DNA of 20,000 nucleotides from Asterionella formosa (Eukaryota): positions 46,743 to 66,742 of the forward strand of contig NKIB01012964.1 in the NCBI GenBank assembly GCA_002256025.1. The letters run 5' to 3'. Made by a program: the position numbers and the translations under genes. The notes below the pieces were generated by a model, which worked only from the letters and a program-made list of their open reading frames with translations, was not told the DNA's origin and ran no database searches. This document shows, piece by piece, positions 3,250-18,760 of the stretch (its first letter is position 1; every line of letters begins with the position of its first letter).

Positions 3250-3740
3250 ACCACAGGAGTACTCCCTGGTACCAGGTACCGCATGTCGCATACGTATGAA
3301 TGAAATTCATTATAGCCAAGCAAAATCAAAAAATCGGCCTTGGTGACTGATCTTGCAAAAGATGTACAGTAATATTTTTATTTTATGTATCAGAGCGCGC
3401 CCATTATTGCTTTGCTTTCTTTGCGTCCTCCCATCGTCTGTCTCCCTCTGACAAGCAATGATTGGACATAAGTGCCTCCCCTCCGCCAATCAGCCAAACG
3501 ACAGGGTATAACACGTTTTTACTTAAAAAAATTCAGCCAAATATTTCGATTACCGGACTGTCCAGGGTAGCTACCAGGTACCCCAGGTGCCGTACAGTTA
3601 CCGTACCTGGTACCCGAGGTATACATGACTCACACATCACCCAAGAGTCAATATTTTTTAAATCACCTATTCTTTACAAGGCGAACGCGCAAGTGTACCA
3701 CTATCAGGTAGGTAGATGCAGTTTTCCGGTACCAGGAGTA
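3250..3740. promoter_or_regulatory. GGTACC/CCWGG motif cluster upstream of the cyclophilin-like gene
   Basis: CCTGGTACCAGGTACC at 3265-3280, with several TACCAGGTACC, TACCTGGTACC and CCGGTACCAGG copies between 3570 and 3737. Confidence 0.45.
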
Positions 3741-6525: not shown

Positions 6526-8864
6526 TTGTTGCAAAAACAGCAATTCACAAACTAGCTATCATCACACCATTCACTTACCTATTGCCCACAAAAAAAGCAT
6601 ACCAAAATGACACTTTATGCTTGCTATTGCCCATCATATAAAATATATTTTGTACATTTCTATATTCTCATCAAAAATCATTGCCAAGGGTCAATATTGT
6701 CCATCATTAAAATATTTTTTGAATATTTGATATGTTACCATTTTGGCAATACAATTTACACAAACTGCCCCTTGGTTTTCCATACCTGGTGGGATTCTTG
6801 CTGAAATTGGCATGTGTCTACATAAGGAAGAAACCTTTTATAAGTTGCGGTCATTTTGCTGAAATGTACAACATAACACAGGACAAGCACTCAAGTTTTT
6901 CAAAGTAAATAGAGCACATCATCAATTCTCCCTTTTAAATCGACTGTATTATGACTTAGTGATGCAGATTTTATGCTACTAATTAAGTCGTCTAAATGTG
7001 GGAATCTCAAAACAAGGGCAAATGGCTAATATAGAAAATGACAATGACCAGTGCATAAGAAGGGCGGGGTAGCCCGAAGCAATAGTAGTAAGCAAACAAA
7101 GTAATCAACGTCTGCAAATAAAAAATTATTGTACATATAGGATCAGGGGTATGTTACTATAACTGGCACGGAATTTTTCTGTGCATGATATGCATTTTGT
7201 TACTTGTGAAGGATAAACTGATGTTGCTGATGATAGCGGCGGGTTGCCTCTCCCCATTCCCTTGTACTCCATATCAGAGCTTTCCTTCATTATTAATGTT
7301 CATGTTAATGTTGTAACAACTGCGAAGCAAATACTTCTAAGTCATATTATTCTTATGCAATAACATGCAGTTCCATTCTTATTTTCACTTACCATGAATA
7401 GATGTATTTCATCACACAGGTTTCTCAAGCAACACAATGTGTCAAACAATCCATTTCGATTGTTCACTGTATTAACTAATGGGAAGTAAATGTGTGTTCG
7501 GCTTGTTTAGCTTTTATTAAAACAGGCATTTCCAATCATGATGGTTTGGTCACTTACCGCAACAATTATACGAATCCATGTTCAGTTTCCATATTCCTCA
7601 AGAAATCATGAAGACATTGATGTTCAGAACTTCCATGTACTCTTTGTATACAATTACCCTGATAGTTATAAAAGGATGTGTTACTTATGTTCTAACAGGT
7701 GATTCTTGTGAGAATTGATCCAATGACAGCACTTACTGCAACCGTCATTTCTTCACATTGAATTTGTCCCCACAAGTATGCATATACAGGTAAGCAAATA
7801 AACACTTGAAGAGAGAGCACGCATTGAGAGAAACTGTCAACCCAACAATTGAATATTCTGACATATTCCATTGACCTGCTAACGTGGCTTTTGGCCTTTT
7901 GTTCAGCACCATTCCTTATTGTGTTTCCAACGAAGTCGCAAGATATCGGTAAATTGATTGTTTTCATTACTGGTGTGGCCAGAAAAGGAAAATGATTTTG
8001 AGTTTGGAGATAATAGCACATGCAAAGTAAGCAAAATTTCTTATTGTGCCTTTGCTTCTTTTGCATACCAGCAAGCTGCGGTAAAATTGCCAAGTTGACT
8101 ATTTGGAAATATTGTATATCCACACCTGAGGATCCAATTGTAAAAAATTTAATCTGGCTAAGTCGGATAAGACTTATCTTTCATTTGTGGCATGATTGTT
8201 TAGAATAATTTTATGCTAGAATTCGATTTGGAAGGAACTATTTTAGGGTCAAACTCATTCCCCCAATCTCAAACCCGCATCCCAATCGAAAAAATTGGGG
8301 GTTTTACGTGAGAGCTAGTAGGTTCCATTGGGGTCAGATGCGCACACAGAAAGATCATCATAGAATATGTTTGTCAAGCCCCACCCATGAGTGTACTCAT
8401 GCATATGTATCGTTGTTAGCTATCATGCAAGGACAAAAATTTATGTATGGGAAAATATATAGCGGTACATCGGCTATCTTCTCCATCTCCATCTAGTCTA
8501 TGTAGAATACATATACTCGTGTCTGTCTACATTCCTGAATACAGCCATATTAACTACTATTCATATTACCTGGTACCATATACTGTATGTATCCTGAACT
8601 TACATAATTTGCTATACCGATATATGGTTGTTAAGTGTTCTATATAAGCATGTATATTCTTGGAACACGATGTTTACATGGTACCAGTGGTATTGGCAAC
8701 ATAATGGCAATGATGATAAGCCCAGCATTGTAAACAGATAATTCACGAATTATAGATCAATTGTTGTTGTTTTTAGCTACTGATGTTGTAGAATATGTTT
8801 ACTTGATTCAAGATGGTTATGTACAAACTACTCGGGTTTTGATCCGGCAAGAAATCATGGAGAT

Positions 8865-9040
8865 ATTGTCATTGTGATCAAACTCCATTTTGCTTCTGCC
8901 GATTTTCTATTTTAGCTATTTTGCAATTAATATCAAAGCTATGTCAACAATTATTGTCATTGTGGTCGAACGCCATTTTGCTTCTGCCGATTTTCTATTT
9001 TAGCTATTTTGCAATTAATATTAAAGCTATGTCAACAATT
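8865..9040. repeat. Tandem duplication, 2 x 88 bp
   Basis: 8865-8952 and 8953-9040 align with 4 mismatches (ATTGTCATTGTG...GCTATGTCAACAATT). Confidence 0.95.
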
Positions 9041-10100: not shown

Positions 10101-12682
10101 ATGATGAGGGCGACAACGGCGATGCGACAATCGTCGAGGCTGCAACTTGGATTTTCACAATGGAAGAAGCAACGAGTAATGAGCATTCGTGAATCAAGGA
10201 ACAGAATAGGAAGTACAGTCACACGGTCCATCTCCACAGAGCAGCAACAATCTCAAGATGTTAACAGTCAATGGATGCTGCTAGCAGCAGGAGTAGCGTT
10301 AGCGCTTTCTGCTTCTGCGGTTGTTGGGCACAGGGGTGCCGCGCAATGCGATGTTTCAACTCGGAAGTCAAAACTTAATCGAACACTTTCGTTGCGCGGC
10401 CACATTTCTCTGGAAGAAAAGTACAACATTGAATGGGATATTGTCTTGGGAGAAGGAGCATATGGAAGTGTCCACCCCGCGAGGTTAGCAGCCACTGGCG
10501 AAAAGGTATGCGGCTCTCGCTTGTACACACAGTACCAGGCCACATGCTTGTACTCACTATCACTCGCCTTGTTCGCACCTTCGCTCATCCCATCTAGCTC
10601 GCACTGAAGAAAATAAGCAAACGATACACTAACTCGAGCACATTCAAGGCTGAAGTCGATGCGCTGAAACGAATCTTTGAAATGGGCGGGCACCCCAATA
10701 TTTCAGGCCTGCGCGACATGTACGATTCGGACCCTAACTATTTCTATTTGATTTTGGATTTAGTCTCGGGTGGAGAACTCTTTGAGCACCTCATTAATTA
10801 TGGAGCGTACTCGGAACAAGATGCAGCGAGATTAGTATACGAAGTCGCGAGTGCCTTGGCATTCTTACACGGTGTCGGTGTCGTGCACGCTGATTTAAAG
10901 CCTGAAAACCTCTTGCTATGTTCCAAAAATCGAATGGATGGGACTATAAAAATTATCGATTTTGGCTGTGCCATTGTCAGCGATGATTTTGACGATATAC
11001 CTTCCTATCGACATACGGAGGAGAATGGAAGTTTCCCACCGGTGACTGCATCGACTGGAACGACGGCGTATTGGCCGCCGGAACGGTTTCAAAAAGGCGC
11101 TGTTGCCGATGCGGCAATGGACATGTGGTCTGTCGGGGTCATTTTGTACGTTATGCTAACTGGTGTACACCCATTTGACGTACATGCGGATAGTTCGGAC
11201 GATCAGATTGAGGCAAGGATTCTTAGGGACCCAACACCTCCTATTCGACCAGAACTAACCGGACACCTTTCAGAGAGTGCCATTGATTTGATTAAGAAAT
11301 TAATGCACAAGGACCCTGCAAAGCGCATGACTGCAAGGCAAATGTTGAAGAATCCATGGGTTCGCGGAGAAACAGCCTCCAAAGAAAAGATGCAAGACTC
11401 TGATAAGCGTCTGTCACAATTCAAAGATACACGCTACGAGCTGGAAGCCGGTATCTTTGGTCTCTTAGTCAAGCAAGGGCACAGGGACGTTCGTTTAAGC
11501 GAGGCTAAAGTGAAAGGTGGAAGCGAATTCGAGCATTTAGGTTCAAGCAGTATTCTGAAGCGAGCATTTGCACTCATTGATGCAGGCGGAAAAGGATACA
11601 TCAACTCAGACGATTTAGGCAGGGTTGCGAAAGAGCAAGCCAATATCCAGGTTTCTTCTAACGATACACGTGAGTTGCTCTCTAAACAAGGATCACAACA
11701 AGATATCTTGTCATTTTCGGACTTCTCTTCCCTTTTTTCGGGGTTGCATCACGAGCATTTCCCTCGAGGGCACATGATTTTTAATGCTGGCGATGACGGT
11801 GACGCCATGTATTTCTTGGCCTCTGGAAAGGTGTTAATCCAGACTCGAAAAGGACAGCTAGTTGCGACACTTAAGACCGGTGATTTCTTCGGTGAAGGTT
11901 CCCTTTTATCTGAAGAAGCCAAGCGATTTACATCAGCCAAGTGTGCTACTCCGGTCGATGTCATCCAGATTAAACGAGCTGACTTTAACAGGTACATCTC
12001 ATCGTCGGAATCAACCAAGAATGAACTTCGGCTAAAGTGGCGAGCTCGGAACCTGGACTATGCTAAAAATCTCATTCGACTGGATTCCAATGTAAGGACA
12101 AATGAATATAGTAAGGGTGAGGTGGTGTATAAAGAAGGTGATGTTGGTCAGGACATGTATCACGTTTTGGAGAACGATGGTGGTATACTAGAAGTCAGTC
12201 ATGGAAATCAAGTAGTCCACCAATATGTGAACGGAGATTCTTTCGGTGAGACATCCTTGCTCTTCGAACGACCCCGATCATCGACGGTCACTTGCGTATC
12301 TGACAAATGCCTCCTTCAAGTGATGAGTGGTGCCGACTTTCGCGCTGTAGTTGATTCGAATCCCAACATGGCGGCCGCGCTAAAAAACATGTGCCGAAAA
12401 CGGCTGTTCAAGAGGGCTATCAAAGCGTATTCTCTTAAACAAGGGCGTAGTTTGTCAAACGAGGATATTGAGAAAACTTTCGTGGAGGCAGATGTCGATC
12501 AAAGCGGAAGCTTGAATCTTGATGAAGTTGCAGAGATAATGACACGCATGGATACAAATTTTCCAAGATCGGAGATCGAGGCTCTATTGAAATATATTGA
12601 CGTCGATGAAGATGGAAAAGTGAGCATCGAAGAATTCAGACGGCTTTTTCGTCAATTCGAAGATGTGAAAGCATCGACTTAG
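10101..12682 (+). CDS. CAMK/CDPK-like Ser/Thr kinase with EF-hands and two cyclic-nucleotide-binding domains (2 exons, ~829 aa)
   Basis: Exons 10101-10505 and 10598-12682. The 92-nt intron 10506-10597 (GTATG..CTAG) gives GEK/LALKKISK in frame with the 666-aa ORF. Kinase motifs: GEGAYG, ALK, HADLKPEN, DFG, YWPPE, DMWSVG. EF loops: DAGGKGYINSDD, DVDQSGSLNLDE, DVDEDGKVSIEE. cNMP cassettes: GDFFGEGSLL..KRF and GDSFGETSLL..PRS. The exact start Met is uncertain. Confidence 0.9.
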
Positions 12683-12904: not shown

Positions 12905-14620
12905 TTACACTCGCTTCAACCACAATTGACTAAAGGCCCAATCTGCGATGATTACCATCAAACTACTCATAACGACAGCAAAAGTAATGACGTCAGGCAC
13001 ATGTCGAGGTGTTAAATGGGGCCACAGACGAGCCGATAGTTCTGCCACAAGCATAGTGATGGTCATGAACGCGACTGCTTTGGTCACATGATACACTGGC
13101 GGATAGGTCCAAAATTCAATCAATGCGTCTCCATAATTTTCAGAAAAAGTGCTTCTCAAGTCGAAATTCAGAAGAGCGTCTTTAAATGTGTACTCAATGC
13201 TTCCATCATTCACCTCCCAAAGAGGAGCAAGCGAGCGAAGTCTCCAGATAGGGAAAGTCGATTTGTACACTTCTTTCAAATAGAATTGTCGCGTCCCAAT
13301 ACCATATTGTGGACCTACGTGGCTTCCCAAGAAAATTGCCAACGCTGTCCCCATGGCCGTCAAGATTGGTGCCGCCAACAAAGCCGCTGCTAAACTTGGC
13401 AACAGCGTCCAGGTGAGTGGAGATATACCCAAGGTCGCTAGCAATTTTGTTTCCGACGTTGATTTCATTGTAGCCACTTTTCCAGCGTAGGAGCCACCAA
13501 TCCTACCGCACAACAGGAGTGCCGTGAGCAAAGGGCCGATTTCCAATACAAACAATTTCCCCATTCCCATTGCGTACAGCACTGCCTTGGCCTCAGGGAC
13601 TGCTGTATTGAGCATTGACTTGACTTTGGCTTTAATCATCATGAGCATCAATGGGCTGGACTCCTCCCCAGTAATCAACTTCAACATAGGACGAACTTCT
13701 TGATCAACAATGCCTACGACCTGATTAGTTACATCGATTCGCCTCAAAATATCACAACTAAGCATAGAAATCGCTAAGCCACATGCCATGAACGTCATTA
13801 GAATCAATGGAATGGACCAGCCAATGTAGTCCGTTAATCGTTCCTTGAATCGATCAAAATTCCTAGTTCCAAAGAGATTAAGAATTTTATCTTTTTGAGA
13901 GTGTGTGTCCTTGCAGCCCCCATTGAGAGGTGCCGTCAATTCCACTATGACGTTGTTGTTTGTTGTCTCTTGTTCCATCACCATATTTGCTAATTCTGGT
14001 TCATGACTAATCAAAATAAGGGCTGTTTTATATTCCAATCTCAAGTGCACCAATTCCCTCGCGACTGCTTTGGCAGATTCGTAGTCAAGGCCAGTAAAAG
14101 GTTCATCCAACACAATGACTCGCTTGCGCTGAGCCAACTGTAGTGCAAGGGAGGCCCTTCGCCCCATTCCACCTGACAGTTCACTTGGTCGTTTATTGGC
14201 ATCGTTTTGGAAGTCCAATCCCACACTTTCAAGAAGGGTTTGTATTTGCTTGTGCAGAGGCGTCGTTGAGATGATGCTAGACGAGGCATGCATCAATGCG
14301 ACTGCCAAGTTCCCAGCGACAGTCAGTTCATCCACCAGCGTTGTTTGCTGGAATAAAACACCACAGCGCTCTTGCAGAGGAATATCATCCCTCCATTGAA
14401 TCCCCACGTCAATGTCTAGCCGATCGAGTGAACTAGAGTTGCTCAAGCCAGCCAAGTAGGTGGCAAGAGTTGTCTTCCCAAAGCCGCTGTTTCCTTTGAG
14501 CCAGACGCAGGCGCCAGGATCGAGCTGGAACTCAATGGTTGCATTTCCGAATGGGCACTTTCTTCCCTTGTTTGTGGCGTGCAATGACACTAATGGAGAA
14601 TTAGGAGACGTAGATGTCAT
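12905..14620 (-). CDS. Fused ABC ATPase (MlaF/TGD3-like) and MlaE/TGD1-like permease, 571 aa, intronless
   Basis: ATPase motifs: Walker A GNSGFGKTT, Q-loop GVLFQQ, signature LSGGM, Walker B/D-loop IVLDEPFTGLD, H-loop ISHE. The C-terminal half carries the MlaE hallmark EIGPLLTALLLCGRIGG...MKSTSE..LLATLGISP and an MlaE-like final helix (VITFAVVMSSLMVIIADWAFSQL). Confidence 0.88.
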   Translation of the reverse strand: MTSTSPNSPLVSLHATNKGRKCPFGNATIEFQLDPGACVWLKGNSGFGKTTLATYLAGLSNSSSLDRLDIDVGIQWRDDIPLQERCGVLFQQTTLVDELTVAGNLAVALMHASSSIISTTPLHKQIQTLLESVGLDFQNDANKRPSELSGGMGRRASLALQLAQRKRVIVLDEPFTGLDYESAKAVARELVHLRLEYKTALILISHEPELANMVMEQETTNNNVIVELTAPLNGGCKDTHSQKDKILNLFGTRNFDRFKERLTDYIGWSIPLILMTFMACGLAISMLSCDILRRIDVTNQVVGIVDQEVRPMLKLITGEESSPLMLMMIKAKVKSMLNTAVPEAKAVLYAMGMGKLFVLEIGPLLTALLLCGRIGGSYAGKVATMKSTSETKLLATLGISPLTWTLLPSLAAALLAAPILTAMGTALAIFLGSHVGPQYGIGTRQFYLKEVYKSTFPIWRLRSLAPLWEVNDGSIEYTFKDALLNFDLRSTFSENYGDALIEFWTYPPVYHVTKAVAFMTITMLVAELSARLWPHLTPRHVPDVITFAVVMSSLMVIIADWAFSQLWLKRV

Positions 14621-14734: not shown

Positions 14735-14945
14735 AGTACCAGGTAATATTGGCAAATATTTTCATACCTGGTTCTCCAGAGCACTACTTTCATTCATACC
14801 AGGACCTGGTACCAGGTACCGGTTGACTACCCAAATTATACCGTAGCTGTAGTATGATGTGGCCTGTGGACTATAGATACCACGAGGTACCTGGTACCTG
14901 GTCCCTGGTACTGCTGTGAAAAAGTACCTGGTACCTGGTACCAGA
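14735..14945. promoter_or_regulatory. GGTACC/CCWGG motif cluster with (GGTACCT)n heptamer runs, upstream of the MlaF-MlaE gene
   Basis: ACCTGGTACCAGGT at 14804-14817, GGTACCTGGTACCTGGTCCCTGGTAC from 14886, and GTACCTGGTACCTGGTACCAG near 14924-14944. Confidence 0.5.
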
Positions 14946-17599: not shown

Positions 17600-18760
17600 T
17601 TATTCCATTTTCTTGCCCCTCGCCCGAGCGATACCAGTTGGACCATCTGGAACCTTAAATGTTCCCCAAAATCGATCACAAAATGTGAACATCTGACCAT
17701 AATTGTAAATATAGTGAGTGTGATGGACTGTGTGATACTTGCTTCCCATAATGGGATCCACATTCCAGTCCATTGCGTCATGAATGTACGTGGCCCACAC
17801 TGCCGTAAAGAACAGCATGACCATGTGAGTCGGGTAGTGACAGGGTATAGCAAAAAGCCAAATCACATAAGGACACGCTTGAAGCAGACCATCTAGTGGA
17901 TGAAAGGCAATGGATGCCCATGGAGTGAGGGTATCGGCCCTGTTGTACTTGTGATGCTGCAAATGTATATTCTTGTACATCCACTTGTTGGTGTGCAACG
18001 TTCGGTGCATCCAATAAATTCCAATTTCCACAAGAGAAAAGTATAGAATCATGCAGAATGCATGCGGGAGCCAACCTCCAATCTCGTCAATCGTGAAATA
18101 TACCTGCGTGTATCCGTTTTCCACAACAAATTCGTCAATGACAGGCAAACCAACATAGAGGAATAGACTGAGCTGCGATAGCTTGATTTGATCCCAAATG
18201 GTGTCCCAGGATGGCCGGGCGCGTTCCTTGAAGGTTTCTTGTGACCTCGGATGAACGTAAATCTGGTAGTGAAAAAAAGCGGCAGTGCCATAGTAGACGA
18301 GCGAGCCTGCGACTAAATTTCTGAGATAGCAAAGGAAATAATGACCCCACTCCATTCCCATGCTTTTGAGAACGTATCCCGCTAGCTGCGACGAGAACAA
18401 GATGGAATTGAGGAATGCATTAAAGTTCCGACAAGGATTGGCAAGCGCGTCGCCTTGCAGCAGGGCATCGTACGACGAGGAGTAGGTGTGGCCTTGGTAT
18501 TCAAACGAATCGATCCTGTCATCGGAAGCCATGCGATCGAGCCACCATGTTCCGGGGAAAGGGACTGAGGCACGGCAGCAGCGGTTAGGCGTCAGCAGAC
18601 ACGCAGGGAAACAAAACTCCTCCCATCACCTACCAGAAGGACTATCACTCCCAGTCGATACAGTCTCGTTCTTCTCCCACCACGCAGCATACGCTACAGT
18701 TGCGAATAGCAACAGAGACAGACAGAAGAAAAGGGCGGTTTGGGACGAGGAAATCGCCAT
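17600..18760 (-). CDS. ERG3: Delta7-sterol C5(6)-desaturase (lathosterol oxidase; ERG3/SC5D/DWF7 family), 2 exons, ~363 aa
   Basis: His boxes YWMHRTLH, HLQHHKY and YHTVHH, plus SIAFHPLDG and YNYGQ..FCDRFWGT. Exons 18760-18634 and 18564-17600. The 69-nt intron 18633-18565 (GTAGGT..CTAAC..CTCAG) is in frame. C-terminal KKME fits the KKXX ER-retrieval motif. Confidence 0.9.

Follow-up and report, generated by a model that had tools for sequence, protein, structure and literature searches.

An Expressed Diatom Gene for a CAMK-Type Kinase That Carries Two Cyclic-Nucleotide Sensors and EF-Hands

The Locus and Its Gene Model

The window analysed here is a stretch of 20,000 nucleotides of Asterionella formosa (assembly GCA_002256025.1, contig NKIB01012964.1, positions 46,743 to 66,742), which is eukaryotic and diatom-like, and all positions below count from its first letter. 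The gene under study lies on the plus strand and consists of two exons and one intron; its product of about 803–829 amino acids (aa) contains a protein kinase domain, a junction helix, an EF-like pair, two domains of the cyclic nucleotide monophosphate (cNMP)-binding type, here called CNB domains, and a canonical C-terminal EF-hand pair. The features are as follows, with residue numbers given for the database protein P0001.

10101-10505, plus strand: exon 1 (open reading frame list, identity of P0001 across the junction, RNA contigs)
10272-10328, plus strand: hydrophobic segment WMLLAAGVALALSASAVVG (residues 32-50; Kyte-Doolittle)
10374-10391, plus strand: basic motif L-N-R-T-L-S (residues 66-71; alignment with orthologues)
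10422-11362, plus strand: protein kinase domain, interrupted by the intron (residues ~82-364; Pfam, PDB sequence matches, fold match)
10506-10597, plus strand: intron of 92 nt, GT..AG (RNA contigs of four runs from three studies)
10598-12682, plus strand: exon 2
11399-11476, plus strand: junction helix (residues 377-402; AlphaFold2, phmmer, hhalign, fold alignments)
11525-11731, plus strand: N-terminal EF-like pair (residues 419-487; EF-hand_7 8.1e-5, below the cut-off)
11579-11614, plus strand: first EF-like loop DAGGKGYINSDD, with Gly and Lys at positions 3 and 5
11744-12079, plus strand: CNB domain A (residues 492-603; cNMP_binding 1.5e-19 in the scanned stretch 11723-12085)
11885-11941, plus strand: phosphate-binding cassette A FFGEGSLLSEEAKRFTSAK
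12095-12439, plus strand: CNB domain B (residues 609-723; cNMP_binding 5.6e-14 in the scanned stretch 12068-12445)
12239-12292, plus strand: phosphate-binding cassette B SFGETSLLFERPRSSTVT
12458-12676, plus strand: C-terminal canonical EF-hand pair (residues 730-802; EF-hand_7 2.7e-15)
12491-12526, plus strand: C-terminal EF loop 1 DVDQSGSLNLDE
12599-12634, plus strand: C-terminal EF loop 2 DVDEDGKVSIEE
12680-12682, plus strand: stop codon (open reading frame list; the transcript runs on beyond 12750)

The first-pass annotation of this DNA, made from the letters alone, had named the kinase, the junction, the EF-like, the two cNMP and the canonical EF parts, and all five are present within a few dozen bases of where it had put them. 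Its range of 10420 to 12682 takes in the domains, with 10420 marking the first residues of the kinase; the candidate start codons lie upstream, at ATG 10101 or ATG 10179, the latter being where P0001 begins. Exon 1 codes for the leader, the basic motif and the start of the kinase N-lobe with its Gly-rich loop GEGAYGSV, and the VAxK lysine is already in exon 2, so that the intron splits the kinase N-lobe. Downstream, an uninterrupted open reading frame (ORF) of 666 codons (10682-12682) holds the kinase C-lobe and everything after it as far as the last EF hand, while the Gly-rich loop forms the end of another-frame ORF upstream of it.

The splice signals in the DNA are the GT at 10506 and the AG at 10596-10597, which join ...ATGEK to LALKKISK..., and P0001 (803 aa) is 100% identical to the spliced product with exactly the same exon junction. 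RNA contigs from four runs in three studies skip exactly these 92 nt ('GT..AG (cut +2)'), and exon 1 is covered by contigs from 10050, 10073 or 10207 up to 10503-10505. Single spliced contigs of 2987, 2659 and 2714 nt, starting at 10207, 10073 and 10050, respectively, and ending beyond 12750, each span the whole coding region. In addition, one RNA-library contig of 140 nt from run X7 (10486-10625) is unspliced across the intron and stands beside a spliced contig of the same run; it could be intron retention, pre-mRNA or DNA carry-over.

A different explanation would be that the architecture is an artefact, with two or three neighbouring genes joined by misassembly or read-through. No support was found for it, although the intron does interrupt the kinase domain and the plain ORF alone misses the N-lobe. 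It is already refuted by the ORF, homologue and RNA evidence, and its residual probability is negligible: a single ORF of 666 codons reaches from the kinase C-lobe through the last EF hand; the whole region lies within single spliced RNA contigs from three studies, so the architecture stands on one mRNA and is not a fusion artefact; and among 120 listed homologues, some of them MMETSP transcripts marked 'type:complete', the kinase and cNMP families are present in all and the EF-hand family in 105, the other 15 covering at most 81% of the query. The locus is thus an expressed diatom gene for a kinase with two cNMP sensors and EF-hands, and that the gene and its architecture are real and belong to an ochrophyte family of kinase-EF-CNB-CNB-EF proteins is close to certain.

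Family Distribution and Origin

The named proteins among the listed homologues are all from diatoms (Fistulifera solaris, Nitzschia inconspicua, Pseudo-nitzschia multistriata, Amphora and Cylindrotheca), and the list also includes centric and pennate diatom species of MMETSP. Among 1.84 billion cluster representatives, 2367 matches were obtained at 1e-30 or better. In a scan of 30 representatives, 28 combined an N-terminal kinase with at least two cNMP domains; 15 of these 28 carry a C-terminal EF pair at 1e-6, and 2 carry four cNMP domains. A further 20 representatives comprise 12 with kinase and cNMP domains, 5 of CDPK (calcium-dependent protein kinase) type and 3 double kinases. In the ESM Atlas, P0001 retrieves its own diatom cluster together with PKG-like clusters.

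A FastTree tree of 34 representatives, midpoint-rooted with SH-like support and used only for choosing representatives and separating the two diatom clades, sets the diatom clade of this gene apart from a second clade. The latter is also composed of diatoms (Nitzschia inconspicua, Seminavis robusta, Epithemia, Attheya and Thalassiosira), and each of the two clades contains one protein of Nitzschia inconspicua. Deeper relatives occur in Chrysoparadoxa australica, Ectocarpus, Pylaiella and the bolidophyte Triparma strigata. The order of kinase, junction with EF-like region, two cNMP domains and C-terminal EF pair was found in all six named relatives scanned, that is, two from Ectocarpus and one each from Triparma, Nitzschia inconspicua and Cylindrotheca closterium, together with P0386. 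Overall, this order is shared by both diatom clades, Triparma, Chrysoparadoxa and Ectocarpus.

The homology to brown-algal members extends over the full length. The Chrysoparadoxa protein P0149 is 45% identical to an Ectocarpus siliculosus protein, and it matches the diatom clade-1 proteins with 33-38% identity over 96-99% of the length (E 1e-137 to 1e-107); its match with P0001 has 420 bits and 38% identity. The family occurs in every major diatom lineage sampled, with two paralogue clades among the diatoms, and it extends to bolidophytes and brown algae; both sensor types have long been conserved in it. The gene is a member of a large ochrophyte family that has already been catalogued.

The family is also labelled unevenly in databases. 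Some members appear under 'CDPK-like with two EF hands', a label that is silent on the cNMP domains, and others under 'cGMP-dependent protein kinase', which misfits the kinase type. The latter name is given in UniRef to P0392, P0394, P0135 and P0423 despite their CAMK-type kinase and C-terminal CNB domains, and P0356 of Seminavis goes under 'MAP kinase-activated protein kinase 2'.

With regard to origin, the profile of the junction and first EF pair is collinear with that of CDPK-type relatives in hhalign (Prob 92.3%, E 5.6e-7), and this supports the descent of the gene from a CDPK-like ancestor. The nearest CDPK-type matches have the catalytic loop HAD in P0251, P0255 and P0264 and HGD in P0245. 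Among them, the closest canonical four-EF proteins are P0251, with an SDKKL-type junction start, and P0264, with an N-terminal hydrophobic stretch, and these features point to a common stramenopile CDPK-like stock. As for the view that the gene is a CDPK that took up a cNMP module between its two calmodulin-like lobes, its first half agrees with the CDPK-like kinase and junction; on the second half the sequence gives no preference, as the C-terminal EF pair matches both lobes of CDPK-type relatives alike (98.6% and 7.6e-16 for the first pair, 98.2% and 4.5e-14 for the second).

Leader, Kinase Domain and Junction Helix

The leader upstream of the kinase is about 70 aa long and rich in Arg, Ser and Thr. 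Its hydrophobic segment WMLLAAGVALALSASAVVG has a Kyte-Doolittle mean of 1.96 over 19 aa, and among 84 relatives with an N-terminus of at least 60 aa, such a segment reaches at least 1.2 in 69 and at least 1.6 in 29. The segment could serve as a membrane anchor or belong to a targeting signal, and it probably tethers the kinase to a membrane. Just before the kinase, the basic motif (KLNRTLS here) corresponds to the conserved PRNVMLHRMRS of the orthologues, and the phi-x-R-x-x-S pattern, which is the CAMK substrate consensus, occurs in 65 of 94 relatives within the 22 aa that precede the kinase; a role as an autophosphorylation or pseudosubstrate site is suggested.

The kinase is a Ser/Thr kinase of CAMK type and not of AGC type, as the first-pass annotation had proposed. 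Pfam gives Pkinase at 1.7e-46 for the 666-aa ORF (10682-12679). In the PDB sequence search with P0001, the best 33 rows are all CDPKs and CaMKs, headed by PfCDPK2 (4mvf, 1.6e-45) and CaMKI-D (3e-45), and the highest-ranking PKG stands at row 34 (8.2e-38). The best 50 fold matches of the full model are all CaMKII, CASK or DAPK (Z 31-33; for example CaMKII 5ig1_A with Z 32.7, rmsd (root-mean-square deviation) 2.2 and 290 aligned residues), and no AGC kinase is among these 50.

The catalytic loop reads HADLKPEN, the DFG motif is present, and the activation segment contains a variable acidic insert. The catalytic Lys, the Glu, HxDLKPEN, DFG and the PPE glutamate are unchanged across 30 orthologues, in which K113, E128, D208, K210, N213, D230, F231, G232 and E271 are invariant; therefore, the kinase is predicted to be active. 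The Arg of the HRD motif is absent. In the alignment of 108 family members, with identity down to 32%, from which all the following column counts are taken, position 207 is A in 68, G in 13, C in 11, S in 7, N in 5 and T in 3, which makes the family non-RD. Non-RD kinases usually need no activation-loop phosphorylation.

The junction follows the kinase directly and is in turn followed by an EF hand, as in CDPKs. Its consensus is DSDKKLSxFKDLRxKLEAGIFAVLV, and AlphaFold2 predicts a helix of 26 residues at 377-402. The phmmer alignment to PfCDPK2 4mvf spans the kinase and the junction up to residue 401, and those to 9d8s (TgCDPK1-type) and 3igo (CpCDPK1) reach residue 474, within the first EF pair. 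The fold alignments with autoinhibited DAPK2 and CaMKII also extend over the junction, to model residues 386-404, which fits an autoinhibitory docking of the helix in the model. The junction helix is thus presumed to be the autoinhibitory segment.

The Tandem CNB Domains

Two stretches of cNMP_binding are found by Pfam in the 666-aa ORF (2.1e-33 as a whole). The PKA-R/PKG-type tandem module recognised in the first pass is borne out by alignment, as it is collinear both with PKA RI-alpha (query 2-192 to 54-249) and with CNB-A/B of Plasmodium PKG (79-256). As in PKG and PKA-R, two consecutive domains each have a Gly-Glu...Arg cassette. In cassette A, G541 is kept in 108/108, E542 in 106/108 and R552 in 103/108; in cassette B, which has the canonical form FGExSLLxxxPRSSTV, G659 is kept in 108/108, E660 in 104/108 and R669 in 99/108.

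The AlphaFold2 model of the full length, made with a 108-row alignment, has a pLDDT (per-residue confidence) of 85.3 and a pTM (global score) of 0.71; the first 68 residues are below 50, and the activation-loop insert is also low. Because a fold search with the whole model was filled by kinase domains, the regulatory module was folded and searched separately. Folded alone, it reached a pLDDT of 91.0 and a pTM of 0.86, that is, it is predicted as one fixed unit. The single CNB domains superpose on the solved cNMP-bound domains of Epac2, PKG I-beta, HCN and SthK with an rmsd of 1.2-2.0 Å, and a long helix (698-723) after domain B leads into the last EF pair.

The EF-Hand Pairs

The two EF pairs differ in their ligands. 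In the first, the stretch 11468-11770 reaches EF-hand_7 with E 8.1e-5 and 23.3 bits, below the curated cut-off of 30, and the second loop is without a ligand pattern, in keeping with the "EF-like loop with a degenerate partner" of the earlier description; its top PDB match is centrin (1.4e-7). In the first EF-like loop, position 1 is D in 106, position 3 is E in 56 and D in 26, position 5 is K in 86 and R in 13, position 6 is G in 105 and position 12 is D in 92 and E in 6. DAGGKGYINSDD, in which positions 3 and 5 are Gly and Lys, lacks the form of a canonical Ca2+-binding loop, and the conserved Lys or Arg at a ligand position makes this pair more likely a structural lobe than a Ca2+ sensor.

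The C-terminal pair (stretch 12428-12679, EF-hand_7 2.7e-15; the 666-aa ORF as a whole, 3.4e-19) is canonical: in DVDQSGSLNLDE as in DVDEDGKVSIEE, positions 1, 3, 5 and 12 carry oxygen ligands and position 6 is Gly. In loop 1 the successive columns are D103; D76/N19; S72/T12/D10/N8; G105; and E80/D20, and in loop 2 they are D97; D82/N12; D67/S16/T11; G97; and E90/D11. Counted as acidic or polar ligands at positions 1/3/5/12, loop 1 keeps 103/95/102/100 and loop 2 keeps 97/94/94/101 of 108. The pairs do not form the contiguous four-EF calmodulin-like domain of a CDPK, for the two cNMP domains separate them. A complex prediction of the junction with the first EF pair (372-495) against the C-terminal pair (722-803) scored 0.00 in a run in which the alignment was not used, and it bears neither way on a split calmodulin-like domain. 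The residues of both kinds of sensor are under purifying selection across the 108 proteins.

Proposed Regulation and Its Alternatives

It is proposed that the product is a CDPK-derived, non-RD kinase that is autoinhibited by its junction and released by cyclic nucleotide and/or Ca2+, a reading to which we give a probability of roughly 0.55. At rest, the junction helix would lie on the kinase as in autoinhibited CaMKII and DAPK, with the compact regulatory module holding the helix. Cyclic nucleotide would bind both cassettes through Arg552 and Arg669 and shift the long helices after each CNB domain, of which the exit helix of domain B would run directly into the last EF pair; Ca2+ would fill the two canonical C-terminal loops and open that lobe. 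Jointly or separately, these changes would pull the junction off the catalytic cleft and turn the kinase on. Given the strong conservation of both sensor types, dual control would be the most likely form of this regulation, and the chance that both messengers really control the activity is about even. An integration of two messengers by one chain, as first suggested for this gene, would follow from it.

Several observations weigh against this proposal. The autoinhibited docking rests on the ranges of the fold alignments only, and full-text literature searches gave no binding or activity study of any family member, just as the first-pass annotation knew of no characterised example. The modelled orientation of the two CNB domains is unlike that of PKA RI-alpha (rmsd ~14 Å, Z 16.5, 193 residues), and for this reason an inter-domain arrangement like that of PKA-R is not claimed.

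Further points against it concern the sensors themselves and bear on two alternative explanations. Cassette A is one residue longer than the canonical cassette between Glu and Arg, and the residue after its Arg is Phe in 57/108 and Ser in 34/108, so that affinity and selectivity are uncertain; a preference for cAMP or cGMP is not safely readable from the Ser (cassette B) or the Phe (cassette A) that follows the Arg. With such an atypical cassette, the protein might be a divergent CDPK that responds to Ca2+ only, its CNB domains being ligand-free spacers or binders of a ligand other than cAMP and cGMP. CNB-homology domains and the PKA-R of kinetoplastids are precedents, the kinase and junction are CDPK-like, and a survey of kelp CDPKs (PMC12335766), in the part available, files the brown-algal member under CDPKs. 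Nevertheless, the Gly-Glu and the Arg of both cassettes are kept in 99-108/108, and cassette B is canonical and aligns with the cGMP- and cAMP-binding domains of PKG and PKA-R, so that this explanation appears improbable.

On the Ca2+ side, the first EF loop is without a ligand at position 5 in 99/108 (Lys or Arg), and kinases with two to four cNMP domains and without an EF hand make up 8/30 of the representatives at E<=1e-6 and 9/20 of the further ones at E<=1e-5. Since such EF-less relatives exist, some of the wider group can do without a Ca2+ input, and there the cNMP module is the lone recognisable sensor. The protein could accordingly be imagined as a CAMK-based analogue of PKG and PKA that answers to cyclic nucleotide only, with EF hands that are structural or permanently loaded with Ca2+, and the 'cGMP-dependent protein kinase' names of several members, though automatic labels, agree with this. 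What speaks against it is that the C-terminal EF ligands at positions 1, 3, 5 and 12 are kept in 94-103/108 from diatoms to brown algae, a conservation hard to explain without Ca2+ binding; high-affinity structural sites, however, would be equally conserved. This alternative is regarded as rather unlikely, though a stronger competitor than control by Ca2+ only.

Layouts without EF hands were seen in the wider relatives P0249, P0233 and P0219, in which an N-terminal CAMK-like kinase is followed by three or four cNMP domains, and they mark the order of kinase and then CNB as a broader, variable theme.

A stricter form of the proposed release by cyclic nucleotide and Ca2+ is a true single-chain coincidence detector, that is, a membrane-tethered kinase that fires only when the rises of Ca2+ and of cAMP or cGMP overlap, the exit helix of domain B coupling both sensors mechanically to the CDPK-type junction. 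This is put forward only tentatively, as a somewhat doubtful extension. If true, it would become the first known example of a kinase that decodes both messengers directly, and it could link Ca2+ and cyclic-nucleotide responses that have been reported separately in diatoms, for example in nutrient resupply, CO2 sensing and pheromone signalling. In diatoms and brown algae, Ca2+ and cyclic nucleotides serve as stress, nutrient and reproductive signals, and to our knowledge few decoders of either have been characterised there. If activity needs both ligands, the family would join the two pathways directly at the molecular level and would add a new regulatory design to those of the CAMK kinases.

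Neighbouring Genes and Sequence Elements

On the minus strand, convergent with the kinase gene and with 222 nt between the stop codons, lies a 571-aa ORF (12905-14620), in which an ABC transporter ATPase (1.2e-20) is fused to an MlaE-type permease (5.6e-21). In the lipid-transport systems of bacteria and plants, the ABC ATPase and the MlaE-type permease are generally separate proteins. Two further minus-strand ORFs have a Pfam match, one of 310 aa (17603-18532) with a fatty acid hydroxylase domain (6.5e-23) and one of 261 aa (1518-2300) with a weak cyclophilin-type match (7.6e-4, 20.2 bits vs a cut-off of 21.7). For five other window ORFs of 124-255 aa, no Pfam match was found at E<=0.01, and a tRNA scan of the window found none.

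The palindromic octamer TGGTACCA occurs 11 times in the window, where 0.24 copies would be expected and none of 200 shuffles gave more than 2; all copies are outside the long ORFs, at 3267, 5904, 8571, 8679, 9543, 9749, 9864, 9924, 14807, 14936 and 18919. Four of them fall in the 560 nt or so before the kinase start, another two precede the ABC/MlaE gene next to an array of the 7-mer GGTACCT (14886-14942), and one precedes the fatty-acid hydroxylase ORF. The octamer is a candidate for a promoter element. The AT-rich stretch upstream of the kinase gene, which is free of long ORFs, also contains a tandem duplication at 8864-9040 (unit of 88 bp, 2.0 copies, 95% matches).

Comparison with Known Systems

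The novelty implied in the first-pass annotation is weakened, for besides the large ochrophyte family described above, one member is already in print; an earlier description of the architecture was among the points that the annotation itself had named as refuting it. According to the part available of the 2025 kelp survey (PMC12335766), SjCDPK13 of Saccharina japonica, a group III CDPK with orthologues in other brown algae, has 1047 aa with an N-terminal kinase, two CNMP domains and two EF hands, and the data given for it there concern expression alone, which is raised in mature male gametophytes and, after a pathogen, 3.5-fold. In the same part, diatom CDPKs are placed only in groups I and II, and diatom members of the architecture are not recorded. 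SjCDPK13 has the same content of kinase, two cNMP domains and EF hands as the diatom protein; they differ in size and gene structure, with 1047 aa and 17 introns in the kelp and about 803 aa and 1 intron in Asterionella. The Ectocarpus proteins have a kinase followed by two cNMP domains and a C-terminal EF hand and show homology to the diatom family, and SjCDPK13, compared here by its published domain description only, is assumed to be orthologous to the Ectocarpus matches.

In the part consulted of PMC13187674, nine CDPK-like proteins are reported in Phaeodactylum, two of them with two EF hands, and cyclic-nucleotide domains appear nowhere in that part of the main text. PMC3019232, likewise in the available part, has a table of the cNMP-binding domains present in Phytophthora infestans kinases of the AGC and CAMK groups, and it reports one CDPK-like kinase with two EF hands in Thalassiosira pseudonana. 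In PMC5924475 and PMC13436692, nothing was found on the kinase-EF-CNB-CNB-EF architecture.

Compared with the canonical CDPKs (PfCDPK2 4mvf, TgCDPK1 and CpCDPK1), the diatom protein shares the CAMK-type kinase, the junction helix directly behind it and then an EF hand. In contrast to them, its calmodulin-like part is not contiguous, a tandem CNB module of about 240 aa lying between the sub-threshold and the canonical EF pair, and is without four working EF hands, and its catalytic loop is HAD, not HRD. Plant CDPKs typically carry N-terminal acylation motifs, in place of which the diatom protein has a hydrophobic N-terminal segment.

With PKG and PKA-R, it shares the tandem CNB-A/CNB-B with Gly-Glu...Arg cassettes and, with PKG, the presence of sensor and kinase on one chain. 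PKG, however, has an AGC kinase with the CNB domains N-terminal to it, whereas here the kinase (82-364) is CAMK-type, the CNB domains (492-723) are C-terminal and EF hands are added; the PKA-R structures differ from the diatom model in the relative orientation of the CNB domains (the rmsd of ~14 Å given above). A third system is the CCaMK of plants, with a CAMK kinase, a visinin-like EF domain and a calmodulin-binding site, whose inputs are Ca2+ and Ca2+/calmodulin. It resembles the diatom protein as a single CAMK-group kinase that takes two inputs via an autoinhibitory segment, and differs from it in being without a cyclic-nucleotide domain.

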